Program-made: the position numbers and the translations under genes
The notes under the pieces: model-generated
Database searches by the model: none
Seen by the model: the letters and a program-made list of their open reading frames with translations, nothing else
Told to the model about the DNA's origin: nothing
In this document: in pieces, positions 6,041-36,359 of the stretch
How positions within the stretch are numbered: position 1 is the stretch's first letter
How the letters are laid out: every line of letters starts with the position of its first letter
Virus record (IMG/VR): IMGVR_UViG_2602041644_000008
Span: 1 to 37,809 of that record
Strand: one strand, 5' to 3'
Length of the DNA stretch: 37,809 nucleotides
Origin: a virus
Taxonomy: Duplodnaviria > Heunggongvirae > Uroviricota > Caudoviricetes

Positions 6041-6055
6041 TTACCTTTCAGGTAA
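6041..6055. promoter_or_regulatory. Operator copy (exact TTACC-N5-GGTAA)
   Basis: TTACCTTTCAGGTAA, intergenic, about 50 nt upstream of the LexA box and small antirepressor gene. Preceded by TAGATA. Confidence 0.75.
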
Positions 6056-6092
6056 TTTGCAAAACGTGCTGGATAGCAAACAAATTATTTGC

Positions 6093-6112
6093 TACTGTAT
6101 AAATATACAGTT
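6093..6112. promoter_or_regulatory. LexA (SOS) box
   Basis: TACTGTATAAATATACAGTT is a CTG-N10-CAG palindrome with an AT-rich centre, a near-perfect match to the E. coli consensus TACTG(TA)5CAGTA. It ends 5 nt before ATG 6118 and 20 nt before ATG 6133. Confidence 0.85.
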
Positions 6113-6132
6113 ATTGCATGGAGAAGATTAAG

Positions 6133-6390
6133 ATGCAGCAGTATCACTATCCACTGGAAGACGGATTTACCGAAAGGATTCACACGCCGGGAGGCGTCAG
6201 GTCACTGGTGGAGGGATCGCACTTGATGAAATTACTCCGGGATCTCGATAAGGATGGATTTAATGTCGATGGCCCACTTGCCGAACTGACTGCACTGATT
6301 AACTACGTCACCAGCTCACAGATGTCTATGCAGGATCTGCAAACACATCTCGACTATTGTGCCGAACAATTACGAAAACAAACCACATAA
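6133..6390 (+). CDS. Small LexA-controlled antirepressor candidate
   Basis: The track ORF starts at 6118. ATG 6133 has SD GGAG at 6121-6124 and leaves room for a transcript starting after the LexA box, giving 85 aa. The C-terminal 60 aa are homologous to the C-terminus of the Bro-N protein at 7536-8228. Confidence 0.65.
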   Translation: MQQYHYPLEDGFTERIHTPGGVRSLVEGSHLMKLLRDLDKDGFNVDGPLAELTALINYVTSSQMSMQDLQTHLDYCAEQLRKQTT

Positions 6391-6396
6391 AGAAAA

Positions 6397-6412
6397 GGCC
6401 GCTAGAGCGGCC
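6397..6412. terminator. Bidirectional terminator between convergent genes
   Basis: GGCCGCT-AGA-GCGGCC hairpin flanked by an A-run (left) and a T-rich tract (right). Lies between the stop of 6133-6390 (+) and the stop of 6412-7140 (-). Confidence 0.7.
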
Positions 6413-7140
6413 TATCGTTTCGCTTTGTGCTCGTCCCAGCACGTTTTGCACCATGCCATTAAGCCATCCGCATTTTGATTATTAGGGTAAAAGCTGGTTC
6501 GTTTTCTGCGGACATTACAAATTGGGCACCACTTCATATGGCGTGTATTCTTTGGACCATCGAGACACCTTGCACACCACTTAGTCAATCCATCTGGATT
6601 TTTTGACGATTTCCTGAATTTTTCATATGGAAGGTTTATTCTGCATCGCAAGCACTGCTTGCTACCACTTGAAACTCTGTTAGCTGATTCTTCTTTTGGC
6701 GGCGATACAGAAGGTATTCTTGCTGGCTCTGATACTGCCTGAGGTGCTTTTTTAGATGACTGAGACGATATGTCATCACCAGGGAATCGTCCATGATATG
6801 CCGGACGCGTTGACACTCCAGGTGGAAGCTCTGCTGTAAATGGCTTTGGCTGAATCAGTTGCCTCTCTTTTGCTAACTCCTGCTGTTTATAATATGTCTG
6901 GATTACCGCACTATCATAAGCAGGAGGTGCGGAAATATTAGGCGCATTACCTCCAGTTTTTTGAAACTGAGTAGAGGTGTGTTCTATCACCTGTGTACGA
7001 TTAATCGTTATCTCCCCATCTTCGGTCTTTATCGTTTTGTTATGATTAACGACCGTACGATCAGAGATCTTAGTCTTGTTCTGGTTGATAACATAAATAA
7101 TCACCGCAACCACACCAACAACTATCCAGAAAACTTCCAT
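6412..7140 (-). CDS. Membrane-anchored protein with two C-terminal CxxC...WCxxC zinc-ribbon repeats
   Basis: 242 aa. N-terminal TM helix (FWIVVGVVAVIIYVI) followed by Lys/Arg (N-out/C-in predicted). About 130 aa of low-complexity Pro/Ser/Gln linker. Two repeats: CLRCRINLPYEKFRKSSKNPDGLTKWCARC and CPICNVRRKRTSFYPNNQNADGLMAWCKTC. SD GAGGAAAAG. Confidence 0.8.
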   Translation of the reverse strand: MEVFWIVVGVVAVIIYVINQNKTKISDRTVVNHNKTIKTEDGEITINRTQVIEHTSTQFQKTGGNAPNISAPPAYDSAVIQTYYKQQELAKERQLIQPKPFTAELPPGVSTRPAYHGRFPGDDISSQSSKKAPQAVSEPARIPSVSPPKEESANRVSSGSKQCLRCRINLPYEKFRKSSKNPDGLTKWCARCLDGPKNTRHMKWCPICNVRRKRTSFYPNNQNADGLMAWCKTCWDEHKAKR

Positions 7141-7160
7141 TGCTTTTCCTCACAATAACA

Positions 7161-7175
7161 TTACCTTAAAGGTAA
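7161..7175. promoter_or_regulatory. Operator copy (exact)
   Basis: TTACCTTAAAGGTAA, 20 nt upstream of the start of the minus-strand Zn-ribbon gene. On the minus strand it is preceded by AGATAT (-10-like). Confidence 0.75.
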
Positions 7176-7224
7176 TATCTTGCTTTCAGGTGATCAAGCG
7201 TTAAACGCAATCAACCAAATAAGG

Positions 7225-7254
7225 TTGATTTTAATATTTCTTCGCGTTTATCAT
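7225..7254 (+). promoter_or_regulatory. Sigma70-like promoter for the antirepressor leader
   Basis: TTGATT-N18-TATCAT. The -35 hexamer is the right arm of an 8-bp inverted repeat AATCAACC-N6-GGTTGATT (7209-7230). The last T of the -10 is the first T of the operator at 7254. Confidence 0.5.
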
Positions 7255-7268
7255 TACCTTTTAGGTAA
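7254..7268. promoter_or_regulatory. Operator copy (exact)
   Basis: TTACCTTTTAGGTAA, abutting the -10-like hexamer TATCAT. Confidence 0.75.
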
Positions 7269-7381
7269 ATTTACATCGCACTCCTCTTGTGCCATAGTAA
7301 TTGGGCACTGGCAAAATCCAGTGCCGGGATTGGTCTCCCGGATTACTACAGAGGCACATATGCCGCATAAGCGGTTTTTTT
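7262..7381 (+). ncRNA. Candidate small RNA / terminated leader upstream of the Bro-N antirepressor gene
   Basis: No credible ORF. Hairpins GGCACTGG-CAAAAT-CCAGTGCC (7304-7325) and CCGGGA-TTGGTC-TCCCGG (7325-7342), then CCGC-ATAA-GCGG + T7 (7363-7381). The start is inferred from the promoter above. Confidence 0.35.
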
Positions 7382-7535
7382 ATGTGTAAAGCGCACCTAT
7401 TCTATGGTGAGCTGTGTGGGGGCACCGAAAGGTGCGCCGGGTTCCTTTGTAGCCGGTAAGACCAACTCTGCACAGTTCACCACCATCTGATTGGTCTCAG
7501 CGGTGGTGATTAACCTAACTACAAAGGTGATCGCC

Positions 7536-8228
7536 ATGAATACCAAACCTTCCATCTTTTCCTTTGAGTCATCCTGCCAGATCCGTATGTTCATGATTGA
7601 CGGAGAACCTTGGTTTGTCACCAAAGATGTGTGCAATGCTTTGAATATTGATGTTACACAAGCGAGAAAACTTGATAAAAAAGGCTGGAACAAAAAGGGG
7701 CTGTATTCAATACAGACCCCTGGTGGAATACAAGAACTATCCATCGTTTCAGAATCAGGTCTCTACATCCTTATTCTGCGTTGCAAAGAGGCAATGACAG
7801 AGGGAACGAGAGCGTTCAGATTTCTTGAATGGGTTACAGGTGAGGTTCTTCCTCAGATCCGCCGCACCGGAAGTTACATTAAAAACTCGCTCCCGCAGGA
7901 AGAACGCATAAAGATGGTTGCCGACCAGGTAGCCAACGCCACAGCATCAGCAATGATGCAGGCAATGAAGATAGAGAACAAAACCTACAGTGCCCCACTG
8001 AAGCCCGGCTACCGTAGCCTGATTCATTCTCCGTCTGGTGTTCTCGGCCTGACGGAGAACTCACTGCTGATGAATCTGCTGAACCAGTTACAGGAAGACG
8101 GGCACGATGTATCGGGCGCGGCGGCGGAGCTGACCACCATGTTCTGCTACATCGTCGGTGTGAGCAAATGCCTGCGTGATATCCAGACCCACGCGGAGTA
8201 CATCAACGACAAAGCAGGATTCTTCTGA
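7536..8228 (+). CDS. Bro-N domain antirepressor-like protein
   Basis: The track ORF starts at 7491; ATG 7536 (MNTKPSIF...) has SD AAAGGTGA, giving 230 aa. Bro-N motif FSFESSCQIRMFMIDGEPWFVTKDVCNALNI. The C-terminal 65 aa are paralogous to the small protein at 6133-6390. Confidence 0.8.
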   Translation: MNTKPSIFSFESSCQIRMFMIDGEPWFVTKDVCNALNIDVTQARKLDKKGWNKKGLYSIQTPGGIQELSIVSESGLYILILRCKEAMTEGTRAFRFLEWVTGEVLPQIRRTGSYIKNSLPQEERIKMVADQVANATASAMMQAMKIENKTYSAPLKPGYRSLIHSPSGVLGLTENSLLMNLLNQLQEDGHDVSGAAAELTTMFCYIVGVSKCLRDIQTHAEYINDKAGFF

Positions 8229-8236
8229 CGGGCGGC

Positions 8237-8256
8237 GGCACAGGGATGTGCCTTTA
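8237..8256 (+). terminator. Terminator after the Bro-N gene
   Basis: GGCACA-GGGA-TGTGCC hairpin followed by TTTAAATAATT. Confidence 0.55.
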
Positions 8257-8272
8257 AATAATTCTGTACAGA

Positions 8273-8301
8273 TTGCAGACCGGGGGTGAATAGCGTACTA
8301 T
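8273..8301 (+). promoter_or_regulatory. Sigma70-like promoter of the YafO-like cassette
   Basis: TTGCAG-N17-TACTAT. The last T of the -10 is the first T of the operator at 8301. Confidence 0.55.
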
Positions 8302-8315
8302 TACCTTAAAGGTAA
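8301..8315. promoter_or_regulatory. Operator copy (exact)
   Basis: TTACCTTAAAGGTAA, identical to the copy at 7161. Confidence 0.75.
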
Positions 8316-8357
8316 ACCTGTTTTTATTTTATACCTGTAACTTACCGGAGATTAAAG

Positions 8358-8684
8358 ATGACAAAACTTGGATTCGTGATGAGAGGTCCGGTAAGAAGCG
8401 GAACTCATGCAAAGCGTAGCAAGAGTCGTATTTTTACTGGTAAGGTTGTAGCACGTAAATCAGCTATTGGCTCGTTCAATAGTGAAAATGCGGCATTGCG
8501 CCATATTTTTATCAGCACAAAGCCAAGAGCATCCGCTGATGTGCATACAATGTCTATTCCTATCACAAAGAATATCAAGCGGATAAAAAAGCTCTCATCT
8601 GCAGAATCAAAAGAGATATCTTTCCGCCAGCTTAACTCATTAGAAACGCATATGAAGGAAGAGGAATTCGATGTTTTTGAGTGA
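8358..8684 (+). CDS. Basic 108-aa protein of unknown function; candidate partner/antitoxin of the downstream YafO-like protein
   Basis: SD GGAG 7 nt upstream. Lys/Arg-rich N-terminal two thirds and an acidic tail (EEEFDVFE). Its 3' end overlaps the next gene by 14 nt. I recognise no family. Confidence 0.6.
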   Translation: MTKLGFVMRGPVRSGTHAKRSKSRIFTGKVVARKSAIGSFNSENAALRHIFISTKPRASADVHTMSIPITKNIKRIKKLSSAESKEISFRQLNSLETHMKEEEFDVFE

Positions 8685-9183
8685 GTATAGCGGGAAGGTT
8701 ATACCTACTGGTGAGTTTAAAACTGATGACTTTCTGATTTCGCTAAAAGATGCTTTTAAACAACACTGGCGTCATGGTCATCATCCTGATCTGGGAAAAG
8801 ATACTCTTTTTGAAAGACCAGACGAAGTATTAGGCTTCCATCTCAGAAAGGTTCATGTCAATATTGGTGAATATGCATCATATTCATACTCATGTACTGA
8901 ACAGTGTTGGGATGAGTGGTCATATGGATTGATTGATGAACAAGGAAATTACAGGCCAAAACCAACCAGTAACGCATATCTCATATATGCAGTCAATGAA
9001 ATAAGAGATGCAGCCTTACTAGCTTATTGGGACCCGCCCGCACACACCAAAGCTAACGCAAAAGTTTGGATGGATTCCGTATTGAATTTCACAAAATTAT
9101 TTCATGAACGAACTAATACAGCTCCACTTAGTAGAAATGTTTATCCGTGGGATTATTCGTACAAATCCAAAAAGCCTGCATAG
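8671..9183 (+). CDS. YafO-family toxin-like protein (putative ribosome-dependent mRNA interferase) with an insertion
   Basis: 170 aa. GKDTLFERP...LRKVHVNIG and TSNAYLIYAVNEIRDAALLAYWDPPAHTKA parallel the YafO blocks FGRDALY...VAHIHL and SHLVYC...YLLIAVISPDAH, as I remember them. An extra Cys/Trp-rich segment (YSYSCTEQCWDEWSYGLIDEQGNY) lies between the blocks. Confidence 0.55.
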   Translation: MFLSEYSGKVIPTGEFKTDDFLISLKDAFKQHWRHGHHPDLGKDTLFERPDEVLGFHLRKVHVNIGEYASYSYSCTEQCWDEWSYGLIDEQGNYRPKPTSNAYLIYAVNEIRDAALLAYWDPPAHTKANAKVWMDSVLNFTKLFHERTNTAPLSRNVYPWDYSYKSKKPA

Positions 9184-9264
9184 TAGTTTTTTATGGACGA
9201 AACAAAAGTCAGTGCTACACTCATTGACGCCACATTGAGGTGGCTTATAGATGGAAATTTCACA

Positions 9265-9426
9265 ATGAAAAAAGCATTTGCTGCACTGTTCGTTTTGTTG
9301 TCTCTGGTAGCTTCAACTCAGGCCTTTGCCGGTCGTTGTCAGCACGACAGCGATACTGCCGCTGACGGCTCCCGCTGCGGTGGGCGTTCTGCGGATTCCC
9401 GCCCGGGCGGCGGTGGCATTCGTTAA
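9265..9426 (+). CDS. Secreted mini-protein (53-aa precursor, about 31-aa mature, 2 Cys, Gly/Arg/Asp-rich)
   Basis: The internal Met of track ORF 9193..9426 gives a canonical signal peptide MKKAFAALFVLLSLVASTQAFA|GRCQHDSDTAADGSRCGGRSADSRPGGGGIR. The SD is weak and the start is uncertain. Confidence 0.45.
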   Translation: MKKAFAALFVLLSLVASTQAFAGRCQHDSDTAADGSRCGGRSADSRPGGGGIR

Positions 9427-9432
9427 AAACAA

Positions 9433-9448
9433 GGCCGCGAAAGCGGCC
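9433..9448. terminator. Bidirectional terminator between convergent genes
   Basis: GGCCGC-GAAA-GCGGCC (GNRA loop), with an A-run on the left and TGTTTG on the right. Confidence 0.7.
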
Positions 9449-9455
9449 TGTTTGA

Positions 9456-10307
9456 TCACTGTGCAGTTTTCGCTGATCGATTTTCAGCTCTAAATTCAAG
9501 AACCGTTTCAATATTTCTTTCCTTCAGCATATCAATAACATTTTTATTCACTTGACTATCACTGGTTAATAACTGGTAAACGTTGCTTCTCTCTTTATCA
9601 GAGTTTTCTTTAACAGCTGCTTTGCATGCCAAATGCTTATTGAAATTTTCTACATCGCTAGTACAGGAATTTACGGCTGCTGATGAAATATCAGACGCTG
9701 AAGAAACACCATCATCCAAACGTTTTATAGCATTTTCTATACATGAGTTAAGGGAATAAACGACAACTGAGCGATACCCTTCAGACGCACACCATTCTAA
9801 ATTTCTTGAAGGATCGAGTGGTTTTACTTCGCTGGATTGAATTAACTTGTCAAAAACTGACTTATATTCAATCTGTTTTTTATCTATAGCCCATACTTCA
9901 GTAGCTGATTTATAATTCCCCGTATGCCTATTAACATCAAATCCATGTTTTATAAGCAAATCTGCCCATGAAAGATTTATTGATTCATTGTTATGAGGCC
10001 ATTTTCCTGTCAGAACCGCCCCCATAGACCCCATATATCCGCCATATGATGGTATAGCACCATGGCTCAGTAACTTCTCAGCAACCACAGGGCAATTAAT
10101 TACATAAGAGGCGTAAAGCCCATTCCATAAAGCCCCTCTATAGTAATCGCCACGATTAGGTTCTTTTAAGTCGATAGCCTTTGATAATTGTTCACACGTT
10201 TTGCATGCATCAAAGTTATCCTTATTGCATTGCAATGAACTGGCAGCTGTAGGATTTACAGAGACTATTGAAAGCACTATGCCAAAAAACAAATTTATTT
10301 TTTTCAT
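9456..10307 (-). CDS. AT-rich periplasmic protein of unknown function (possible ankyrin-like repeats)
   Basis: 283 aa with signal peptide MKKINLFFGIVLSIVSVNPTAA. Motifs EKLLSHGAIP and ADLLIKHGFDVN resemble the ankyrin LLxxGAxxN signature. Many Cys. ATG lies 2 nt after the stop of the 1129-aa gene. Confidence 0.6.
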   Translation of the reverse strand: MKKINLFFGIVLSIVSVNPTAASSLQCNKDNFDACKTCEQLSKAIDLKEPNRGDYYRGALWNGLYASYVINCPVVAEKLLSHGAIPSYGGYMGSMGAVLTGKWPHNNESINLSWADLLIKHGFDVNRHTGNYKSATEVWAIDKKQIEYKSVFDKLIQSSEVKPLDPSRNLEWCASEGYRSVVVYSLNSCIENAIKRLDDGVSSASDISSAAVNSCTSDVENFNKHLACKAAVKENSDKERSNVYQLLTSDSQVNKNVIDMLKERNIETVLEFRAENRSAKTAQ

Positions 10308-10308
10308 C

Positions 10309-17484: not shown

Positions 17485-19955
17485 CAGAATCCCCCAACAG
17501 TAAGGCGAGGAATAACGGCAAGAACAGACAGCGGCAACGGATCAAGCTGACGGATTTTTACACGTCCGTTTTTGCCCCAGTTACTGTCCAGTTTCACTTC
17601 TACTTTTCCGGTAGCATCATCAACAGGATCATCGTAGAACTCGAATTCACGCTGTGGATATTCGTACCATTTACCGCCGGGCGTAGTCGCCCAGATGCCG
17701 CGACTGGCATTCACAACCAGAGTAACGGAGGGGATCACCTGTTTTTTGTCCAGCAGCGTTTCCTGTCCGTTAATGTTGATATCCAGTGTTTCGAATTCAG
17801 CAGTTATTGGCAGGCCGATGTGCACTACAGCCCCCGGAGATTCCAGCGTGACGGCACCTCCGGAAACCACTTTCTGTGGTTCCACGTTCGCATCAGAGAG
17901 AATGTTTACGGTCTGGCCTTCAAGATGAGACAGGCCTCCAAATGTCCGGCGCGCCATCTGCCAGTTCGTGGTGGCCACATTCCTGAGGGATGGCGGGACG
18001 TTCCTGTTAGCACGAACCACTACAGCGGTGTTGCTGGTTACAGAAATAATGTCGCAACGTAATTCTTTTGACACTTCATCGCCAGTATCAGGATCAGTTC
18101 CGGTATAAGGGAACTGTAGTTGCGCGCCGACATCACTACTGGTGAAGTACGCACCACCAGAAACACTGATTGTATATTCCGCATGGTAATCCCATTCACC
18201 AGAACCACCAGTGATGGTCATCGTTCTGTCAGACGTATTTCTTCCATCATAGCTAAGGCCAGAATCAACAAAGAAAGCATCTTCATCGCTGGTAAATAAA
18301 CGGCTGGACAGTCGCTCGATGTATCTCACTGTTTGCCCGTTAACGGTTCGGTTAACGACGAAATACACCGCATCTTCATTGCCTTCGCTGATACTGCATG
18401 TGCTTTCATATTTTCCGGTACTGGATTGTGGTGCCCATGCAAAAACCTGCTGATCACGCAAATAGGTCATCACCAGTAATTTACCGTCATCACGAATGCA
18501 GAAGGCACTGGAGTAAGGGACAATCGAGAAGCACCAGTCAACAATGCTGTGCTTCTGAAAAAGATGATTGGCAAGGATGGTCAGGTCGTTCCCCTGATAG
18601 CCGTCAACATCGAATGAGTAGGCCAGATCACGGACAACGCTGCCTTTCTCCTGGACGAACAGAGCAATATTCGCCACGGCAATTGGCGGGACGTTGCTTG
18701 AGCCATTTGATCCCTGAGAGCTGAATGCAAATGATGATGGGGTTAACACTTTGTTCTGGTCGCCGGTGATGACGTACTCACCTCCGGAAGTCAGCGCCAC
18801 CAGAGAACCAACATCAATCAGGTGACGGATCTCATTAACCTGACGCCCGGCATAGGTGTAGATAATTCTGTCGTCATCCTGCGTAGGATTGCTTTTGCCA
18901 AAATCCTTATAATCCCCGGTACGGCTGGCCCAGATAGTCTGAGGGAACGCAGTCGATGCGGCGAAGTAAAGACGTTGTTGATAATAAACAACAGTGCCAG
19001 GATAACCATTAACACTGTTCCAGGCATATTTAGCCCATTTATAGCTGGCATTATCCTCGCCAACGACCTGCGAAGGGATATAGGAAATCACCTCGGCAGT
19101 TGCAGTAGTTCCATTTGCAGCAGTGATACGGGCAATGCCAAAACCACTGTGCAGATATTCCCACTCAATGCCGGTATCATCATCACCGGATCCGCCCCAG
19201 CCATCCCATGATGTGCCTTCTGTATGCGAAGGGCGCAAAGTGCCTGTTTTACCTGCTGTAACAGCGCGATAGTAGTTACTGTCTGCACGGCGAACATCGT
19301 CAATCGACGTACTCTTACTGGTTTCCCATACCGGCACTGAATCCACTGCAGGCTGTTCCAGATAGAACAATTTGCCTACCTGCTCCGAGCCAAAAATAGA
19401 GGCGCTTGCCGTTAACGTAATTGTCCCGGTGCTGGCGCTGGCATAAACCGTCACTGACTCGTCAATATTGATATCTTCAAATGGTCCGTTCTTCGTTACC
19501 ACATCAACCAGTTGCCAGTTGTCATGCGCATAGCGACGCAACTCTTTCGGCGGGTATGCCGGATGAACCAGCGTAAGCACGTCTGCGCTTTGCGTGAATT
19601 TAATTCGGAACAGATCGGCTTCAGTATATGGCGTGGCAATTTCATAAATAACATTGCTGCTGTTCAGCACCAACGCACCATCTTTGATAACGCGCATGTA
19701 CTGGTGTCCGAACTCCAGAGCATAGGTCTGAACCGTCGAGAACTGGAACGGGATCAGGCGGCATTTCCGATTTTGGTATTTGGCGGCACCGACAAAACGC
19801 GTACCAGGTCGATTCTCAACGCCGCCATACTGCCGCACGATAAAGTTATCGCACTTGCGCAATGCTACCTGGTACTTCGCCATGTCAATACGCCCGTACA
19901 ACGACGGTCCAATCTCACCACCGGCAAAACTGGGCTGGATCCAACTGATAGCCAT
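17484..19955 (-). CDS. Tail hub / nozzle protein (tail tubular protein B-like)
   Basis: 823 aa, beta-rich. Lies directly after the adaptor candidate and before the ejection proteins, as in T7-type podoviruses. Confidence 0.55.
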   Translation of the reverse strand: MAISWIQPSFAGGEIGPSLYGRIDMAKYQVALRKCDNFIVRQYGGVENRPGTRFVGAAKYQNRKCRLIPFQFSTVQTYALEFGHQYMRVIKDGALVLNSSNVIYEIATPYTEADLFRIKFTQSADVLTLVHPAYPPKELRRYAHDNWQLVDVVTKNGPFEDINIDESVTVYASASTGTITLTASASIFGSEQVGKLFYLEQPAVDSVPVWETSKSTSIDDVRRADSNYYRAVTAGKTGTLRPSHTEGTSWDGWGGSGDDDTGIEWEYLHSGFGIARITAANGTTATAEVISYIPSQVVGEDNASYKWAKYAWNSVNGYPGTVVYYQQRLYFAASTAFPQTIWASRTGDYKDFGKSNPTQDDDRIIYTYAGRQVNEIRHLIDVGSLVALTSGGEYVITGDQNKVLTPSSFAFSSQGSNGSSNVPPIAVANIALFVQEKGSVVRDLAYSFDVDGYQGNDLTILANHLFQKHSIVDWCFSIVPYSSAFCIRDDGKLLVMTYLRDQQVFAWAPQSSTGKYESTCSISEGNEDAVYFVVNRTVNGQTVRYIERLSSRLFTSDEDAFFVDSGLSYDGRNTSDRTMTITGGSGEWDYHAEYTISVSGGAYFTSSDVGAQLQFPYTGTDPDTGDEVSKELRCDIISVTSNTAVVVRANRNVPPSLRNVATTNWQMARRTFGGLSHLEGQTVNILSDANVEPQKVVSGGAVTLESPGAVVHIGLPITAEFETLDININGQETLLDKKQVIPSVTLVVNASRGIWATTPGGKWYEYPQREFEFYDDPVDDATGKVEVKLDSNWGKNGRVKIRQLDPLPLSVLAVIPRLTVGGF

Positions 19956-25344: not shown

Positions 25345-25434
25345 ATCAATGACTCCGTACGCAATTAAATTATTACCAATTTAACCACATATGATTTATT
25401 TATCGTAGATAATTGACATTTAACGCACGAGTTA

Positions 25435-25449
25435 TTACCTTTCAGGTAA
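25435..25449. promoter_or_regulatory. Operator copy (exact)
   Basis: TTACCTTTCAGGTAA, identical to the copy at 6041. A TTGACA hexamer lies at 25413-25418 on the plus strand, 16 nt upstream. Confidence 0.75.
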
Positions 25450-25771
25450 GCAAAGAGTTCATTCCGGTTATTAACCTGACTGGCTTGTCGTTAAATTGAA
25501 CAGGTGGAGTGAGCTTTTATTTTGAGCAGTACGGCGTATGGCACATGCGCCGATAGCGGTCTGGATACGTTTAAGGGGTACCCTCCCTTGCTCGGGCAAA
25601 CGAACCAGGTAGCCGGAATGTGCAAGTCGAGCGGTTTTATTCCGCGCACGGGGATTCACCATCCCGGCGATTCGGTGTGACGCCTCGGAAGAGACGAGGG
25701 TACAACGATGAGAGCATTTATGGAGCCGCGACAAAGTGTGGCGCCTTAACAGGCTAAGTGCTCTCAGCGTT
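25450..25771 (+). ncRNA. Unassigned structured noncoding segment, probably co-transcribed with the downstream tRNA
   Basis: Stops occur in all three plus-strand frames. Long-range pairing GTACCCTC (25578-85) with GAGGGTAC (25696-703). Local hairpins TTGC-UCGG-GCAA (25588-99), CGGAAT/ATTCCG (25614-19 / 25639-44), GGGAT-TCACC-ATCCC (25651-65), GGCG/CGCC (25666-69 / 25681-84) and AGAGCA/TGCTCT (25711-16 / 25759-64). I could not assign it to a known family. Confidence 0.45.
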
Positions 25772-25848
25772 GTGGCATTAGCTCAGTTGGACAGAGCAAC
25801 CGCCTTCTAAGCGGTTGGTTGCAGGTTCGAATCCTGCATGCCACGCCA
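25772..25848 (+). tRNA. tRNA-Arg (anticodon UCU, reads AGA)
   Basis: Hand-folded 77-nt cloverleaf: acceptor GTGGCAT/ATGCCAC, D arm GCTC-AGTTGGACA-GAGC, anticodon arm ACCGC-CTTCTAA-GCGGT, variable loop TGGTT, T arm GCAGG-TTCGAAT-CCTGC, discriminator G, encoded CCA. Confidence 0.9.
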
Positions 25849-26407: not shown

Positions 26408-26419
26408 GTGACATGTCAC
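26408..26419. repeat. 12-bp perfect palindrome GTGACATGTCAC, copy 1
   Basis: Lies between the Gp49-like stop and its terminator. The 14-mer CGTGACATGTCACA is identical to the copy at 28672-28685. Confidence 0.7.
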
Positions 26420-27969: not shown

Positions 27970-28562
27970 TGATTACCATCCTGACGTTCTTTGAGTCGCT
28001 TCCTGGCTGCCGCTATGCGATCAGCAATTGTCACATTCACATTAACATCCAGGCGTTCTTTGAACGCGTTGACATCAACATGCTTACCAATCAGCTCAAG
28101 GTTCTTCACCTTGTCAGGCCATTTAATTTTTTTGAGGATTGTCTCTATCGAATCCTCGTTCATGTTCATGATGGTCGATGACAGATCAAAGCCACTAAGC
28201 GTAGTGCGCCAGATTTTCGGCCACTCACGGATTGGTTTAAGGCTCCCATCGTCGTTGAGGATGTCGATCACGTCCATCTGGTCGATCTCCACCAGGCGCA
28301 TGAGAACGTAATCAGCACTGACGCGCATTCGTTTGTTGCGCTCCTCCATCAACTCGGCAATCCGTTTTTGAATGCGTTCATCGCGCATCATGACACTGGC
28401 TTTAACTGCCGCTGTATTTGGGGAGAATCCTGCGTTAATCGCTGCCTGAGTTTGGTTTTCAGGCGTTTTGATGTATGACTGGCAATAAGCCTCCTGCATT
28501 GTTGTTAGTGGCTTAAATTGCGTTGATTTGCGTTTATAGGTTTTAGGTTCAGCAGGCATCAT
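27966..28562 (-). CDS. Terminase small subunit
   Basis: The track ORF extends to 28640, but that extension contains a terminator hairpin and two operator copies. ATG 28562/28559 (MMPAEPKTYKRK...) follows SD GGTGG. The HTH-like segment QEAYCQSYIKTPENQTQAAINAGFS is typical of Terminase_2-type small subunits. Confidence 0.75.
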   Translation of the reverse strand: MMPAEPKTYKRKSTQFKPLTTMQEAYCQSYIKTPENQTQAAINAGFSPNTAAVKASVMMRDERIQKRIAELMEERNKRMRVSADYVLMRLVEIDQMDVIDILNDDGSLKPIREWPKIWRTTLSGFDLSSTIMNMNEDSIETILKKIKWPDKVKNLELIGKHVDVNAFKERLDVNVNVTIADRIAAARKRLKERQDGNQ

Positions 28563-28576
28563 AACCACCGTGGTAA
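28562..28576. promoter_or_regulatory. Operator-like copy (1 mismatch) over the terS SD/start codon
   Basis: TAACCACCGTGGTAA, 18 bp centre-to-centre from the exact copy at 28580. Confidence 0.5.
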
Positions 28577-28579
28577 TAG

Positions 28580-28594
28580 TTACCGTTGTGGTAA
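28580..28594. promoter_or_regulatory. Operator copy (exact) in the terminase leader
   Basis: TTACCGTTGTGGTAA, about 20 nt upstream of the terS start. Confidence 0.7.
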
Positions 28595-28600
28595 TAGTAC

Positions 28601-28631
28601 CATGCAAAATAAAGCCGCCATAGTTGGCGGC
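28601..28631 (-). terminator. Rho-independent terminator in the late-operon leader
   Basis: The minus strand reads GCCGCCA-ACTA-TGGCGGC followed by TTTATTTTG. It lies between the palindrome at 28673 and terS. Confidence 0.7.
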
Positions 28632-28672: not shown

Positions 28673-28684
28673 GTGACATGTCAC
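28673..28684. repeat. 12-bp perfect palindrome GTGACATGTCAC, copy 2
   Basis: Overlaps the TGA stop of the 115-aa gene, about 40 nt upstream (minus-strand sense) of the leader terminator. Confidence 0.7.
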
Positions 28685-29028
28685 ACTATTAATTTCGTTT
28701 CATGCCAGCCTTTAGTCACCCAGCATTGCGAGTCACCATTACACGGGCATGAATTAACGGGAACTCTCTCGCCGCACTTACCGCAAAGTTTTCTGCTGAT
28801 CGATTTTATACGCCCGCGCACACGTGCATCATCCTGGCGGATCAGCAGCGCGATGTACTCGGCCATTTCATAGGGATCGCGACCAGGGCGCCGGGCGGCG
28901 CAGTTCCGCGCCAGCATTTCCTGCTCCTGCTTATCCAGCACCAGTTCAATTTTGCGCTCACCGGCGGCGGACTGCCGAGCGCGCTGCGCGGCTTTGCGTT
29001 CTGCGGGGGATTTAGCCACGAATCGCAC
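28681..29028 (-). CDS. Small basic protein with C-terminal Cys cluster; candidate late-gene regulator
   Basis: 115 aa with a GTG start. Arg/Ala-rich N-terminus (KSPAERKAAQRARQSAAGERK) and C-terminal CGKCGERVPVNSCPCNGDSQC. Last gene before the late leader. Confidence 0.55.
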   Translation of the reverse strand: MRFVAKSPAERKAAQRARQSAAGERKIELVLDKQEQEMLARNCAARRPGRDPYEMAEYIALLIRQDDARVRGRIKSISRKLCGKCGERVPVNSCPCNGDSQCWVTKGWHETKLIV

Positions 29029-30716: not shown

Positions 30717-30717
30717 A

Positions 30718-31901: not shown

Positions 31902-31902
31902 A

Positions 31903-32202: not shown

Positions 32203-32768
32203 TGGTTACCTCCTTTGCGAAGCTCTGCGGCGATATCTTCGAGAACGCCATCAGAGAATGAGCGGTCAAAATCGCCTTCCGGCGCATTAGCCATAAACTC
32301 AGTAGAGGTAAGAATCATCCGGGCAATATCCGCGGCGTTCTTCGCAGTATCATCAATAAAACCAGCTTCCCAGGCAGCCAGCATTCTGTTCGCCACAAAG
32401 TAAGCGCCCTCCTTGCGTGCTTCAGTCTTCACTTCAGCTAGGAAAGCATCGGTGGCTGGAATGGGCTTTTGTGGTGATATAGCAATGCGAATTGTCTCAA
32501 GGTCTGGAGCTGTTTCCGCTGTTGGCACCTTGATATAACCCGTCTGCACCCCATTCATGATGAACCTGCGACGGTCATCACATATCGCCTTAAGCCCCGC
32601 ATTCTCCGCTGCCAGCGCATTAGCACGCACCAGTTGCACTTCCAGTTGCGTTGCCAAATCGCTGATCAGCTTTGTCACACTGCGCATATCAACGGCACCA
32701 CATTCTGCTTTCAGTTCCGAAGCCATCTCATGCCCGGCGGCAACTAACCCTTTGATATTACTTTCCAT
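32199..32768 (-). CDS. Hypothetical early protein
   Basis: 189-aa ORF, SD GAGGGTAAAG. Confidence 0.6.
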   Translation of the reverse strand: MESNIKGLVAAGHEMASELKAECGAVDMRSVTKLISDLATQLEVQLVRANALAAENAGLKAICDDRRRFIMNGVQTGYIKVPTAETAPDLETIRIAISPQKPIPATDAFLAEVKTEARKEGAYFVANRMLAAWEAGFIDDTAKNAADIARMILTSTEFMANAPEGDFDRSFSDGVLEDIAAELRKGGNQ

Positions 32769-32829
32769 CTTTACCCTCGCTTATCCACATAACTTATTGA
32801 TTACACTGATAACTAAAAAGATCGTCGAT

Positions 32830-33174
32830 TCAGAACTCTTCGATGTTCCAGCCACCACCTGCTTTCTTTGGCTTAACCGTTACCCCGATGATTCGGAACG
32901 GATACTGATCTGCGGCGACTTTGGTTTTCACCCTGGCGTCGTCGGTCCAGAAACCTTTCACTTCGTGCAGTTCCATCTCGCCGGTGGCGAGCATCACAGC
33001 AAAATCGGGCGTATAGAACGTGTTGTCAGCTAACCGCAACTTGATACCCTCGAATCGATACCAGGCGATTTCCCCTGCACGTTTACGCTGCTCAAGGTGC
33101 TGGCAATACGCAGATTCTGTTTTGTTCATCTGGCCTGTTTTGAGTCGACCAAGAGCCTGCATCTGTTTTCTCAT
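32830..33174 (-). CDS. DUF1064-type putative nuclease/resolvase
   Basis: 114 aa. YTPDFAVML...ELHEVKG is the PD-(D/E)XK-like core of DUF1064 proteins. Confidence 0.65.
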   Translation of the reverse strand: MRKQMQALGRLKTGQMNKTESAYCQHLEQRKRAGEIAWYRFEGIKLRLADNTFYTPDFAVMLATGEMELHEVKGFWTDDARVKTKVAADQYPFRIIGVTVKPKKAGGGWNIEEF

Positions 33175-33177
33175 GAT

Positions 33178-33192
33178 TTACCCATGAGGTAA
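33178..33192. promoter_or_regulatory. Operator copy (exact) abutting the DUF1064 start codon
   Basis: TTACCCATGAGGTAA; ends 4 nt from ATG 33174 (minus strand). Confidence 0.7.
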
Positions 33193-33233
33193 TTAAAAAC
33201 CACATAAGACACGAAATCAATAGATCTTAGAAC

Positions 33234-33261
33234 ATTTTATTACCTAGCAGGTAATTATCAA
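33234..33261 (-). promoter_or_regulatory. Near-consensus internal early promoter with an exact operator copy (33240-33254) filling its spacer
   Basis: The minus strand reads TTGATA-N16-TAAAAT, and the 16-nt spacer contains TTACCTGCTAGGTAA. A weak GCGC-GATA-GCGC + T7 hairpin lies just upstream at 33270-33289. Confidence 0.65.
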
Positions 33262-33291
33262 GACGTAAAAAAATGCGCTATCGCGCTGGTA

Positions 33292-34092
33292 TTACTTGAT
33301 AAATCCTGCCGCCTTTCCCCGCCTGTATTCCTCCATCAGCCACTGCGCCGGTGTTATTCCCCCCAGGGTAGCGGCGTTAGGCATACACCCGAAACTTCGC
33401 CCTGGTGGATGGTAAACGCCTCTCCCTGTGTCCGGAGGCGTACTCATGGGTTCTGGCTTTGCCTGTATGCTGATCACCGGATCGGGTATCTGCTGTCCGG
33501 AAGCCACCTTTTTCGCCCAATCATCAAGCAGCCTGCGCGCGTGTTTCTCAACCTCAATCTCGCTAAGCTGGCGCTGATACATTGCACGGCGGGTATCACA
33601 TACGACCCAGTACATAACCGGATGCCGCCACGGGAATCTTTCGGGACCACCAGGATATAAACTTTTTTCCTTGCTGTACCGGTGAAACTCCGCCATCACA
33701 TCGTCAATGGTGACGCCAAGAACCATCTTGCTGTCTTTACACCACTTGATAAATTGCCCTGGCGACGGCCAGAACGGAGATTCACTGGCGCGGGCGTGGC
33801 GCATACCAGCAGAAACCTGTTCACGGGTTCGGATCCCCCCTTCGGCAAACGCAGCAATCCACTGCTGTTTTGCAGCAACTTCCTGCTCTGGCGTCTTCAG
33901 GTTGGTTACCACTGCCGCCGGAAACAGTTGTTTCAACTGTTTGAAAAGGGCATCAACAAGCCTCTCTGCTGACATGTTCACTACGTTGTCATTGTTGGTG
34001 TACTGATGCTCATAACCTGACATGCGAGAAAGGGCTTCTCCGTCACGGTTTTGTATCGCGGTAAAAACGTTGTTCACAAGAAATCCTCCCAT
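33292..34092 (-). CDS. Lambda P-like replication protein (helicase loader)
   Basis: 266 aa. The alternative start GTG 34077 has SD GGAGGA and a GTGA overlap with the O-like stop. The block QQWIAAFAEGGIRTREQVSAGMRHARASESPFWPSPGQFIKWCK parallels lambda P RRQWVLAFRENGITTMEQVNAGMRVARRQNRPFLPSPGQFVAWCR. Confidence 0.85.
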   Translation of the reverse strand: MGGFLVNNVFTAIQNRDGEALSRMSGYEHQYTNNDNVVNMSAERLVDALFKQLKQLFPAAVVTNLKTPEQEVAAKQQWIAAFAEGGIRTREQVSAGMRHARASESPFWPSPGQFIKWCKDSKMVLGVTIDDVMAEFHRYSKEKSLYPGGPERFPWRHPVMYWVVCDTRRAMYQRQLSEIEVEKHARRLLDDWAKKVASGQQIPDPVISIQAKPEPMSTPPDTGRGVYHPPGRSFGCMPNAATLGGITPAQWLMEEYRRGKAAGFIK

Positions 34093-34889
34093 GCTTCAGG
34101 GCTGTTCCAGTGCGGAACGTTGTTATCAGGTAATGTTGATTGCTTCTGTCTGCTAATCTGCAGCCGCCTTGCCAGCTTCTGCTCCCACTGTGCCTGATGG
34201 TATGCCCTACCCTCAGCCATCCAGTAAATTCTGAACTCTGCAAGTTCCTGTGCCGTTGGCAGACTGTCCAGGTAGATCCCCTGCAATGAGCTTTTCCGAA
34301 GAAAGTCATCTGATGGCTGCCATTGTTCATGCATGACAAATTTGCCTAATTGCCCTGGCCCACCAGGAGGAACAAAGTTATTCATCACGGCGTTGTTTGC
34401 GCCGGGGTCATGATGCACAGAATCCCCGTTTTTTGTCCTGCTCTCCCTCTCTTGGTTAAATGACTGGTTATATGACTGGTTCTGGATCCCGTTTTTGGGA
34501 TCATTCAACATCCCGTTTTTGGGATCATTCAACATCCCGTTTTTGGGTATATTCCCGTTTTCGGGAACATTACCGTTTTCGGGTTCATTACCCCCTTCCC
34601 GGTTGCCTTTAATGTTCCCGTTTTTGGTTATATTAAGAGAGAAAACCCGCACTCTTTTCGTCGCTCCCTTTCTCTCTCCGGTATCTGAAATAAGCCCCAT
34701 TTTCATGAGCGATATAAGCCCGGCCTGCACGGTTTTTTTATTCAGGCAAGTGTCTTTAACGAGGCGTTCTATGCTGGGGTAGCAGAGGTTATATTCATCG
34801 GCTCTGTCAGCCATCGAGAGCAGTATGAGCTTTAATGACGAGCTACCTGGATCTGTCTCCCAGGCCCAATCTGTTGCATGTCTGCTCAT
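34074..34889 (-). CDS. Replication initiator (O-like functional analogue; N-terminal winged HTH)
   Basis: 271 aa, SD GGAG. N-terminal wHTH (LKLILLSMADRADEYNLCYPSIERLVKDTCLNKKTVQAGLISL). The central repeat-encoded NGN/PKNG segment coincides with DNA iterons. Lies directly upstream of the P-like gene. Confidence 0.75.
   Translation of the reverse strand: MSRHATDWAWETDPGSSSLKLILLSMADRADEYNLCYPSIERLVKDTCLNKKTVQAGLISLMKMGLISDTGERKGATKRVRVFSLNITKNGNIKGNREGGNEPENGNVPENGNIPKNGMLNDPKNGMLNDPKNGIQNQSYNQSFNQERESRTKNGDSVHHDPGANNAVMNNFVPPGGPGQLGKFVMHEQWQPSDDFLRKSSLQGIYLDSLPTAQELAEFRIYWMAEGRAYHQAQWEQKLARRLQISRQKQSTLPDNNVPHWNSPEAWEDFL
34460..34629. repeat. Origin-like iteron array inside the initiator gene
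   Basis: TCCCGTTTTTGGGA-type units start at 34487, 34511, 34535, 34553, 34571, (34589 degenerate) and 34616, with spacings of 24, 24, 18, 18, 18 and 27 bp. A tandem ATGACTGGTT x2 lies at 34460-34482. Confidence 0.8.
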
Positions 34890-34904
34890 GATTAATCTCC
34901 GCTA

Positions 34905-35105
34905 TCAGCTTGAATGTTGTGGGGAGGAATTAATCATGATCTGCTTAATCTCTGCCCTGATACGACGGTTTGATTCCATGGTGCACTCAACACAGTGTCC
35001 GTTGTAAACCCAGCGTTCACTGTCATGTCCGTGCTTACATGGTTTTCCGGTGTAGTAGCGTTTAAGTCCGCGCTTTGCGGCATCAATACGTGTAATGATT
35101 TCCAT
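34905..35105 (-). CDS. Small Cys/His protein, function unknown
   Basis: The track ORF starts at 35174, but its N-terminal extension is hydrophobic junk across a promoter region. The start MEIITRIDAAKRGLKRYYTGKPCKHGHDSERWVYNGHCVECT... gives 66 aa with a putative zinc-binding motif. Confidence 0.5.
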   Translation of the reverse strand: MEIITRIDAAKRGLKRYYTGKPCKHGHDSERWVYNGHCVECTMESNRRIRAEIKQIMINSSPQHSS

Positions 35106-35185
35106 GGTAAGCCCTGTTATTAGTATTGGGATTACGGTCATTTTGTGCTGACACAAAAAAAAGATCAACCACATTTGGTTATTTA

Positions 35186-35200
35186 TTACCTTTGAGGTAC
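35186..35200. promoter_or_regulatory. Operator-like copy (1 mismatch)
   Basis: TTACCTTTGAGGTAC, immediately downstream (minus-strand sense) of the post-cro terminator. Confidence 0.45.
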
Positions 35201-35206
35201 GAATAG

Positions 35207-35233
35207 ATATGAAAAGACCGCCGGGTGGCGGTC
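35207..35233 (-). terminator. Rho-independent terminator after the cro-like gene
   Basis: The minus strand reads GACCGCC-ACCC-GGCGGTC followed by TTTTCATATC. Confidence 0.7.
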
Positions 35234-35255
35234 TACAGAGGGTTGTAGCTGGATA

Positions 35256-35486
35256 TCATGAGTAGAAGAAGTATGCCAGTTCTGCTTTTGAGTGCAGCCA
35301 TTGTCTTGATTTACAGGCTTTAAAAAGCCCATTCATCAATACCTTACCTGGCATTTTGCGCTTACCTGTTAAGTGAGTCTGGATATAGTGACTCGTCGTT
35401 CCGGCTTCCTGTGCGAAGGCTTCACGCTCATCCGGAGTAAGTGCAAGCCAGTGCTTTTTGAAATCGAAATGTCCGTTATCGCTCAT
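35256..35486 (-). CDS. Cro-like HTH regulator (first gene of the rightward early operon)
   Basis: 76 aa, divergent from the repressor gene across a three-operator region. HTH-like AQEAGTTSHYIQTHLTG. Confidence 0.65.
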   Translation of the reverse strand: MSDNGHFDFKKHWLALTPDEREAFAQEAGTTSHYIQTHLTGKRKMPGKVLMNGLFKACKSRQWLHSKAELAYFFYS

Positions 35487-35522
35487 AGCTATTGCCTGAT
35501 ATTTATTTCAGATAATAAATAT

Positions 35523-35537
35523 TCACCTATAAGGTAA
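35523..35537. promoter_or_regulatory. Operator-like copy (1 mismatch) in the switch region
   Basis: TCACCTATAAGGTAA. Lies in the spacer of a minus-strand TTGATT...GAATAT promoter-like pair. Confidence 0.55.
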
Positions 35538-35553
35538 CAAAAATCAAGGATAG

Positions 35554-35568
35554 TTACCCATGAGGTGC
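35554..35568. promoter_or_regulatory. Operator-like copy (2 mismatches) in the switch region
   Basis: TTACCCATGAGGTGC. Its left 13 nt are identical to the copy at 33178. It is 17 bp centre-to-centre from 35571. Confidence 0.45.
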
Positions 35569-35570
35569 AT

Positions 35571-35585
35571 TTACCTGTTGGGTAA
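35571..35585. promoter_or_regulatory. Operator copy (exact) in the switch region
   Basis: TTACCTGTTGGGTAA. Overlaps a plus-strand TTTACC-N18-TAAATT promoter-like pair facing the repressor gene. Confidence 0.7.
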
Positions 35586-35640
35586 TATTGCTTTAAATTG
35601 AATCATCTTCTGATTCAGATATGAGGCGATTTTCCAGAAA

Positions 35641-36225
35641 ATGAAAAGTATCCAGGACGTCCGCAGGCAAAATCTCAACGACTTGATCGACCGTGAATTC
35701 AATGGTGTTCAGACGCGGATGGCTGAAAAACTTGGAACTCAGGCAAATCTGGTAAACCGCTGGGCTCTTGGCAAGAAGGTTATCGGCGACCAGGTTGCGC
35801 GAAAAATTGAAGCTGCCGCCAATAAACCCCGTAACTGGCTTGATATCGATCGCTCGCTTTCTCAGGAAGGTTTTCAGCCTGTCGGACCAAGCGACATTGG
35901 TCAACTGGCGGCTCACAACCTGGAACGCTGGATGAGCGAAAGCCGCGACCTTTCAACGCAGGGAAAACTTCACCGCGCATCCGGCGTCGCCCAGGTAACA
36001 ATCAGCCGCCTGTTAAACAATGAGGTCAGCGTTTCCATTTCCACCCTGGAGAATGTTGCATCCGCATTTGGGCGTCACGGATATGAATTACTGATTCACC
36101 CGCACGACCCCGCGACTATCAACTATGACCGCTCGCGCTACGCATTGTTACCTGAAACAGAGAAGGCAAAGATCGAAAGTTACATTGAATTTGTCATCAA
36201 CCAGAACGAAAAAAACAAACAATAA
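35641..36225 (+). CDS. Prophage repressor candidate with two HTH domains and no S24 peptidase domain
   Basis: 194 aa. The N-terminal HTH ends in ARKIEAAANKPRNWLD (CI/C2-like). The second is XRE-type (LHRASGVAQVTISRLLNNEVSVSISTLENVASAFG). No Ser/Lys autocleavage module is recognisable. Divergent from cro; a strong terminator follows. Confidence 0.7.
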   Translation: MKSIQDVRRQNLNDLIDREFNGVQTRMAEKLGTQANLVNRWALGKKVIGDQVARKIEAAANKPRNWLDIDRSLSQEGFQPVGPSDIGQLAAHNLERWMSESRDLSTQGKLHRASGVAQVTISRLLNNEVSVSISTLENVASAFGRHGYELLIHPHDPATINYDRSRYALLPETEKAKIESYIEFVINQNEKNKQ

Positions 36226-36246
36226 AATCATATTTTTCAGTAAGTA

Positions 36247-36270
36247 AGCCGCCTTCTGGCGGCTTTTTTA
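36247..36270 (+). terminator. Terminator after the repressor gene
   Basis: AGCCGCC-TTCT-GGCGGCT followed by TTTTTTA. Confidence 0.85.
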
Positions 36271-36282
36271 TTGCCTATTTGA

Positions 36283-36297
36283 TTACCTAACGGGTAA
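36283..36297. promoter_or_regulatory. Operator copy (exact), upstream of the early-left promoter
   Basis: TTACCTAACGGGTAA, 20 nt upstream of TTGACA. Confidence 0.7.
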
Positions 36298-36316
36298 TTT
36301 TTTTAACTCATATCTA

Positions 36317-36345
36317 TTGACATCAAACCAGATACGCATAATTAT
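36317..36345 (+). promoter_or_regulatory. Early-left (PL-like) promoter
   Basis: TTGACA-N17-AATTAT, bracketed by operator copies at 36283 and 36345. Confidence 0.55.
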
Positions 36346-36359
36346 TACCTCAACGGTAA
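36345..36359. promoter_or_regulatory. Operator copy (exact) at the -10/+1 of the early-left promoter
   Basis: TTACCTCAACGGTAA. Confidence 0.7.

Follow-up and report, generated by a model that had tools for sequence, protein, structure and literature searches.

A dispersed 17-bp palindrome as the probable operator of the Rep repressor in an Escherichia coli prophage of the phiV10/epsilon15 group

The virus record IMGVR_UViG_2602041644_000008, analysed here over its whole length of 37,809 nucleotides (the window), is a Uetakevirus prophage of E. coli (phiV10/epsilon15 group) and carries eleven exact intergenic copies of the hyphenated palindrome TTACC-N5-GGTAA. On comparative sequence evidence, these copies are very probably operators of the prophage's own repressor, Rep, a protein of the type found in phages epsilon15 and SPC32H. 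The dispersed layout is already known, in kind and in sequence, from the sister phage epsilon15, whose GenBank record (AY150271.2) contains seven features labelled 'protein_bind / repressor / lysogeny' with sequences that are ATTACC-N5-GGTAAT. The epsilon15 annotation of the dispersed sites and earlier studies of the repressor-antirepressor switch in SPC32H leave little for this finding to add as a discovery, and the dispersed network described in a first-pass annotation of the window is not in itself novel. The present work adds a 62-bp paired module, the constancy of the operator across genera, the tracking of the half-site with the N-terminal domain of Rep, a conservation footprint, and a link to an isrK-C4 cassette.

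An intergenic palindrome shared with epsilon15

A pattern search of the whole window located TTACC-N5-GGTAA at 6041, 7161, 7254, 8301, 25435, 28580, 33178, 33240, 35571, 36283, and 36345, reproducing the eleven positions given in the first-pass annotation; dinucleotide-shuffled sequences contained a mean of 0.01 and a maximum of one. The extension of the core to the 17-mer ATTACC-N5-GGTAAT, also proposed there, holds at all eleven sites with zero or one mismatch, and 16 matches to the 17-mer with at most two mismatches are present in the window vs 1.3 expected. The 17-mer starts 1 nt before the core, such that core 6041 is 17-mer 6040. Four degenerate 17-mers start at 28561 (one mismatch), 35185 (two mismatches), 35522 (TTCACC...GGTAAC), and 35553 (GTTACC...GGTGCA), and are the same as the degenerate copies previously placed near 28562, 35186, 35523, and 35554. 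In a de novo count of 5-mer hyphenated palindromes with spacers of 0 to 12 bp, TTACC-N5-GGTAA ranked first with 11 copies, followed by a shifted register of the same sites with seven, and any unrelated palindrome occurred at most twice. A curated gene map was prepared with start codons taken from PGAP or related annotations (terS ATG 28559, Bro-N ATG 7536, ant ATG 6133). The non-coding fraction of the window in this map is 7.9% and contains 11 of 11 exact sites (P ~7e-13), which bears out the earlier statement that every exact copy is intergenic. The sites occupy nine intergenic gaps, seven of them besides the left and right operator regions (OL and OR).

In epsilon15, the annotated sites lie before terS, before the head operon, in the gp19/tailspike gap, at three positions downstream of the repressor gene, and after the replication genes; their counterparts in the window are 28580, 25435, 6041, 36283/36345, and 33178/33240. 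The syntenic positions (terS leader, head leader, ant/tailspike gap, OL, OR, and the post-replication pair) are all occupied in the window. A scan of related prophages had been suggested alongside the first-pass annotation, and the sites are kept at syntenic places in the relatives. The two phages share the genus, the gene order, the identical 17-mer, and the matching dispersed positions. They differ in that epsilon15 Rep is only 42% identical to that of the window, epsilon15 has three OL sites vs two, and the window carries additional sites (7160, 7253, and 8300) that lie on accessory cassettes of its own. Unlike epsilon15, the window has no site upstream of the lysis operon, where a search for the site of the relatives found no more than a single half-site, GGGTAAC. 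OR sites are not annotated in the epsilon15 record, and phiV10-type records do not annotate the sites. A full-text literature search, whose reach did not extend to the primary epsilon15 and SPC32H papers, found no description of operator sites of epsilon15 or phiV10.

The window is 96 to 98% identical to phiV10, phiv142-3, EC.W1-9, ZX5, and TL-2011b. Bases 1-1163 are E. coli chromosome (yfgH, yfgI), flanking the prophage on the lysis-gene side, and the phage part opens with lysis genes; this host flank would fit integration close to guaA, the location reported for ZX5 (PMC9782041). Related prophages were found in 569 of 5,426 complete E. coli genomes (~10%). Members of the family serve as O157 typing and reporter phages. 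For a family this widespread in E. coli, the motif would provide a ready map of the Rep regulon and predict which accessory genes are silent in lysogens.

Rep as the probable reader of the motif

Rep is a 194-amino acid immunity repressor with two helix-turn-helix (HTH) domains, encoded at 35641..36225 on the plus strand. Its length and layout are those of the epsilon15/SPC32H repressor type, in which proteins of ~195 amino acids combine a DNA-binding HTH at the N-terminus with an HTH/tetramerisation domain at the C-terminus. It matches SPC32H Rep over its full length (PDB 5D50; E 4e-42 over residues 1-190) and is 100% identical to the Rep proteins of phiV10, ZX5 (ORF21), and EC.W1-9. It is an XRE/HTH_3-type protein, and a domain search detected no peptidase S24 match in it. 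Overexpression of ZX5 ORF21 abolished free phage and lowered the transcripts for endolysin and holin by over 99.9% (PMC9782041). Two reports that cite the SPC32H work describe Rep as binding palindromic DNA as a tetramer, with paired DNA-binding domains contributed by different dimers, and describe tetrameric Ant as releasing Rep from DNA (PMC9638917, PMC9986798).

The SPC32H antirepressor has a homologue in the window, the small Ant protein encoded at 6133..6390 (plus strand), which is 87% identical to SPC32H Ant and 84% identical to epsilon15 gp19; KC911856 gives the gene the name ant. The putative ant -10 is overlapped by a perfect LexA box, CTGTATAAATATACAG (6095..6110, plus strand), which is kept in six genomes. 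The window therefore resembles SPC32H in its full-length homologous Rep, in its Ant, in the LexA box on the ant promoter region, and in having the same operator motif at the same places; it differs in the host and in the tailspike/conversion module, and the C-terminal half of Rep has diverged from SPC32H, with Ant conserved. The SPC32H Rep-Ant switch is represented in the PDB by entries 5D50 and 5D4Z.

We take Rep to be the reader because a matching Rep is encoded in the window and because the epsilon15 sites at syntenic places are annotated 'repressor'. The palindrome TTACC-N5-GGTAA is the top-ranking palindrome in seven of seven Uetakevirus genomes, with 8 to 11 exact copies in each and Rep identities of 42 to 78%; at the lowest of these identities, 42 to 45%, the motif is unchanged. 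In an alignment with the Rep proteins of epsilon15, SPC32H, Tyrion, and Klebsiella, the N-terminal sequence NLVNRW is invariant across the genus.

Several points weigh against this reading. The Cro-like and gp55-like proteins of the window are 78% and 81% identical, respectively, to those of epsilon15, and so are at least as conserved as Rep. The link from Rep to the sequence comes from GenBank annotation and comparative inference. Direct occlusion is unlikely at ant, where the operator precedes the -35 hexamer. Scans of the terS leader, of 8300, of 7160, and of the head-gene direction at 25434 revealed no convincing sigma-70 promoter, and the 62 bp separating paired operators would be a short loop for the clamp model considered below. 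Because the Cro-like and gp55-like proteins are conserved too, conservation alone cannot name the binder within the genus; that approach failed, and the answer came from two phages outside it, PseuP_224 and Mcat9.

The lambda-like Pseudomonas siphophage PseuP_224 encodes a cI protein with an N-terminus 39% identical to that of Rep, fused to an S24 peptidase. Its 43-kb genome contains only four copies of ATTACC-N4-GGTAAT (10906, 10932, 11768, and 11807), all of which flank cI, two on each side. The half-sites ATTACC/GGTAAT are thus shared with the window and the spacer is 4 bp vs 5 bp. In Moraxella phage Mcat9, the N-terminus has diverged, with SQLSQY replacing NLVNRW, and the gene is flanked by altered repeats, TTTACY-N5-RGTAAA. 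These two cases point to the half-site following the Rep-type N-terminal domain into unrelated Pseudomonas and Moraxella phages. A protein search with the N-terminal 73 amino acids of Rep returned only close or truncated relatives.

The 76-amino acid Cro-like regulator (35256..35486, minus strand) could instead be the main reader, alone or sharing the sites with Rep, in which case the dispersed sites would serve lytic-phase down-regulation. It matches the 'transcriptional repressor' family phrog_35 (E 2.6e-12), its 78% identity to epsilon15 gp39 would fit an unchanged motif, and Cro homologues accompany the motif at all those Enterobacterales loci that include OR. In lambda, CI and Cro share operators. 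We nevertheless consider this improbable. The half-sites of PseuP_224 surround a Rep-type cI, and no Cro-like resemblance was found among the products of the genes flanking it; the annotation of epsilon15 attributes the sites to the repressor; and Rep overexpression alone shuts down the ZX5 lysis genes (PMC9782041).

A still weaker candidate is the gp55-like protein (28681-29028), as a late-gene regulator for which the motif would mark the heads of late operons. The protein is called a transcriptional regulator and is 81% conserved, and sites precede terS, the head operon, and the tailspike gene and, in relatives, also the lysis operon. The best sites, at the left promoter (PL) and at OR, cover the +1 position or the promoter spacer, which is the geometry of a repressor and not of an activator, and the cI locus of PseuP_224 has the half-sites without a gp55-like gene. 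We regard this explanation as very unlikely. The interpretation given in the first-pass annotation is partly supported. Its core, that a single repressor acts, in the manner of P1, on operators across many transcription units, has the support of comparative evidence, namely the epsilon15 annotation, the matching Rep, and the tracking of the half-site.

Paired operators and conservation of the half-site

At OL, downstream of rep, the operator ATTACCTAACGGGTAAT (36282..36298) is centred at about -61 of a PL-like promoter, TTGACA-17-AATTAT (36317..36345, plus strand), which precedes the early-left operon (gp39 homologue from 36379). The promoter matches the consensus at 10 of 12 positions, and its -35 and -10 are kept in five genomes. 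The second OL operator, ATTACCTCAACGGTAAC (36344..36360), covers about -7 to +9 of PL and is 62 bp from the operator at 36282. An equivalent arrangement follows the replication genes: internal operator A (33239..33255) fills the spacer of TTGATA-16-TAAAAT (33261-33234, minus strand; 10/12), an architecture kept in seven genomes, and internal operator B (33177..33193), 62 bp from A, ends 2 nt before the ATG of a DUF1064 gene (33174). The module Op-18 bp-(-35)-21 bp-Op, 62 bp centre to centre, is found both at PL and at the post-replication promoter (33255 to 33177, minus strand), where TTGATA-16-TAAAAT forms a second promoter-like pair. The 62-bp spacing occurs twice per genome in the seven genomes, the exception being one Klebsiella pair at 63 bp.

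Three sites, spaced by 17 and 31 bp, form OR between rep and the cro-like gene. The operator nearest rep, TTTACCTGTTGGGTAAT (35570..35586), is identical in 80 of 80 viral contigs and overlaps a possible rep -35 (TTTACC-18-TAAATT). The degenerate middle operator, GTTACCCATGAGGTGCA (35553..35569), abuts it and has an exact equivalent at 17-bp spacing in epsilon15 and SPC32H. The degenerate operator nearest cro, TTCACCTATAAGGTAAC (35522..35538), lies in the spacer of a promoter resembling the right promoter (PR), for which the minus-strand candidates are TTGTTA-17-TATTAT and TTGATT-18-AATATT. A further degenerate site, ATTACCTTTGAGGTACG (35185..35201), follows the cro terminator (35234-35215); its function is uncertain, and the form CGTACC...GGTAAT is kept in phiV10, Tyrion, and EC.W1-9. 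The adjacent 89-amino acid open reading frame (34905-35174, minus strand) probably starts at an internal ATG (35105), as the PHROG profile and phiV10 gp42 cover only its last 66 amino acids, and the gap around the degenerate site at 35185 would then be longer than the open reading frame suggests.

A conservation footprint was obtained from 79 to 80 IMG/VR viral contigs, all encoding a Rep 100% identical to that of the window, a sample that is uninformative for covariation between Rep and its sites. The operator half-sites (at the first OL site in 79 contigs), the PL -35 and -10, and the terminator stems are invariant. The central pentamers differ between contigs: the first OL site (+642 from the start of rep) has 16 variants and one internal site (about -2401) has 23. 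The sequence just outside the operators varies as well. Of the 140 strand-symmetrised counts at the operator centre, taken over the 70 exact sites of the seven genomes, 132 are A or T, and the outer flank also shows an A/T bias.

This pattern bears on whether the motif could be a generic host repeat, a host transcription factor site, or a hairpin or terminator with no phage-specific reader. Each site can fold into a hairpin of 5 to 8 bp (-3.3 to -6.3 kcal/mol). Fixed half-sites, a drifting loop, and the absence of compensatory changes are what a protein site would show, and do not fit a hairpin. None of the 11 sites was called terminator-like in scans of those regions, no exact copies occur in 15.3 kb of the adjacent E. 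coli chromosome, and syntenic copies of the sites are kept in E. coli, Salmonella, Enterobacter, and Klebsiella phages. In Enterobacterales, moreover, the paired module is found only with Rep, Cro, or gp55 homologues, and the matches elsewhere are isolated and resemble chance. We consider a motif lacking a phage-specific reader extremely unlikely. The host-repeat, hairpin/terminator, and late-activator explanations were rejected on the absence of the exact motif from 15.3 kb of adjacent chromosome, the fixity of the half-sites, and the repressor geometry at PL and OR.

To assess the spread of the module, one genome per bacterial species was scanned for two sites 62 bp apart. The pair was found in nine further Enterobacterales species from eight genera (Citrobacter, Pseudocitrobacter, Klebsiella, Kluyvera, Buttiauxella, Erwinia, Pseudescherichia, and Superficieibacter). 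All of these loci contain a Rep, Cro, or gp55 homologue, and Rep homologues of 38 to 75% identity are present at seven loci from six species. Isolated non-enteric matches had no Rep, Cro, or gp55 homologue nearby, consistent with chance. A Chitinophagales metagenome-assembled genome (2554, 2616, and 2678) and Viridibacillus (2921-3007) have three to four copies at spacings of 62 bp or shorter, which may be unrelated tandem repeats.

A mechanism can be proposed in which the N-terminal HTH domain of Rep reads the half-site ATTACC and the 17-bp palindrome takes two such domains. One Rep tetramer could then hold two operators, and we infer that it would clamp the promoters bracketed by 62-bp pairs, PL and the internal promoter. 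In the lysogen, Rep would directly hold off most lytic and accessory units, including those headed by single or adjacent sites (terS, the head/tRNA-Arg gap, ant/tailspike, the Zn-ribbon gene, isrK-C4-Bro, and the YafO-like pair). Induction would proceed through the LexA-controlled Ant (6133-6390), which would strip Rep from DNA and release all units at once. The 62-bp pairs bear on how the unusual tetrameric repressor of the SPC32H type engages DNA.

We advance only tentatively the wider proposal that a tetrameric clamp acts on the 62-bp module in at least eight further Enterobacterales genera, that the ATTACC specificity has been frozen while Rep diverged to ~40% identity, that this creates a potential for cross-immunity at the operator level, and that cassettes come under control by gaining one operator. 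If correct, phages of E. coli, Salmonella, Klebsiella, Enterobacter, and Citrobacter would be potentially cross-immune at the operator level, and the isrK-C4-Bro cassette and the YafO-like pair would have come under lysogenic control by acquiring a single operator at a module boundary.

Single sites, accessory cassettes, and other repressor regulons

Promoter-like matches as a class occur in the window at the level found in shuffled sequence. The first-pass annotation had described a stereotyped placement of the sites relative to promoter hexamers. The promoters at 36317 and 33240 are strong (10/12 each) and that at 7254 matches at 9/12, whereas the one at 8301 reaches only 7/12. The -10 placement is partly built in because the ends of the operator (AT... 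and ...TAAT) mimic parts of the -10 hexamer, and several of the promoter matches are weak. One promoter geometry for all sites was therefore rejected; it is convincing only at PL, the internal promoter, and PR, and the promoter assigned to each single site below is a candidate.

In the terS leader, the order is the stop codon of the gp55-like gene, GTGACA-18-CATGAT, a strong intrinsic terminator (28614..28631, minus strand), two abutting operators, and the terS ATG (28559). Operator 1 (28579..28595) is homologous to the annotated epsilon15 site 12-27; operator 2 (28561..28577), with one mismatch, covers the Shine-Dalgarno sequence before the ATG. Some non-immunity sites, namely the terS pair, 35185, and 7160, could be roadblocks or insulators that, like stoperators, stop read-through into lytic operons. 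At terS, no credible promoter was detected by scanning between the terminator and the operators, and the promoter-like GTGACA-18-CATGAT is upstream of the terminator. More generally, four sites or pairs directly follow intrinsic terminators (36246-36265 before 36282, 35234-35215 before 35201, the hairpin after the replication gene before 33255, and 28631-28614 before 28595). The palindromic sites carry no orientation information, unlike mycobacteriophage stoperators, and elsewhere the motif clearly overlaps core promoter elements. A roadblock role at the terS leader is possible; for this group of sites as a whole we think it unlikely.

The operator at 25434..25450, homologous to epsilon15 site 2931-2947, lies where the head operon (minus strand) and the tRNA-Arg-gp03 unit (plus strand) diverge. 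It overlaps the -10 of a conserved TTGACA(25413)-17-TACCTT that reads toward tRNA-Arg (25772-25848). From this operator to the first head gene runs a leader of ~85 nt (25345-25433) that is near-invariant across the phages of E. coli, Salmonella, and Enterobacter. Its conservation far exceeds that of the sequence flanking the operator on the opposite side, and a single GGTAAT half-site lies within it; the leader may act as a late promoter or as an RNA element.

The divergent ant/tailspike gap contains the operator at 6040..6056, homologous to epsilon15 site 19895-19911. It occupies the spacer of a weak tailspike promoter reading leftward, TTGCAA-16-TATCTA, and is 13 bp upstream of the putative ant -35 (TGGATA). 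In the tailspike leader, 50 bp from the operator, an invariant GGTAATAGAAT block (5985-5995, minus strand) is accompanied by a good -10 (TAGAAT) and a single half-site.

Three operators are found in the accessory region. The first (7160..7176) precedes the Zn-ribbon gene (6412-7140, minus strand), lying 20 bp before its ATG. The second (7253..7269) covers about -7 to +9 of a promoter-like TTGATT-18-TATCAT (7225-7254) and heads a cassette on the plus strand that comprises an isrK-like Hfq-binding small RNA (7305-7381; Rfam RF01394, 74.7 bits), a C4 antisense RNA (7400-7487; RF01695, 78.2 bits), and a Bro-N domain protein (7536..8228; Pfam Bro-N E 2.4e-13; BRO-N protein in PGAP) that is a putative second antirepressor. 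The third (8300..8316), with a weak TTGCAG-17-TACTAT, is upstream of a pair formed by a 108-amino acid gene and a YafO-like gene (8358-9183). The first-pass annotation had referred to control of both antirepressor genes; this label is wrong for the gene at 6412-7140, which encodes a Zn-ribbon protein, and the antirepressor of the characterised type is the small Ant with its LexA box, which had been missed. That the accessory genes act only in the lytic phase, as also suggested there, is plausible only as a prediction.

An isrK-C4-ant cassette is present without the motif in the Stx phage VT2-Sakai, where homology to the window starts just past the operator and the upstream control region differs. 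Tyrion and phiV10 have the operator at the edge of their isrK-C4 cassette. From this comparison, the operator therefore marks the boundary at which a mobile cassette appears to have been wired to the resident repressor.

In the P1 C1 regulon, many operators are dispersed, including Op51 at the immI c4-icd-ant operon, with a C1 monomer recognizing asymmetric 17-mers. The window resembles P1 in having operators of one primary repressor scattered over many operons, with a C4 RNA and antirepressor cassette behind one of them (7253). It differs from P1 in that the sites are perfect palindromes, Rep is an XRE-type protein unrelated to C1, and the trigger is a LexA-controlled small Ant. As an analogy, P1 holds better than the first-pass annotation could have known, since operator 7253 appears to head an immI-like isrK-C4-Bro cassette. 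The lambdoid plan is recognizable in the divergent rep and cro genes with three operators between them, in OL and PL downstream of rep, and in the terminators separating units; the window departs from it in having operators beyond OL and OR, in a Rep without an S24 autocleavage domain, and in induction by an antirepressor.

The stoperators of cluster A mycobacteriophages are asymmetric, orientation-biased, and number dozens per genome, and the sites of Streptomyces phage phiC31 are 17-bp conserved inverted repeats. Both systems share with the window one immunity repressor and many intergenic copies, which in phiC31 are of the same length. The proteins are unrelated, and the best-defined sites in the window (PL, OR, and the internal promoter) overlap core promoter elements. 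The stoperator analogy drawn earlier fails, given that the sites are palindromic and few (11 to 15) and that several overlap the -35, -10, or +1 of strong or conserved promoters.

Other repeated sequences were noted. Outside the window, a conserved degenerate ATTACC(T/C)TAAAGGTATA is ~58 bp upstream of the integrase start in five of five relatives (26869, 26881, 26959, 28567, and 34243 in their respective sequences) and overlaps a site annotated as integrase-binding in epsilon15. A tandem direct repeat, TGGGATCATTCAACATCCCGTTTTTGGG (34496-34515 and 34520-34539), lies inside the DnaT-like replication gene (34074-34889, minus strand) and looks like origin iterons within an initiator gene, as in lambda O. 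A second palindrome, GTGACATGTCAC, is found at 26408-26419 and 28673-28684 and occurs in one to four copies per Uetakevirus genome, mostly at operon 3' ends or immediately beyond them (following terL, the last structural gene, or the gp55-like gene); the copy at 28684 supplies the -35-like GTGACA of a possible late promoter.

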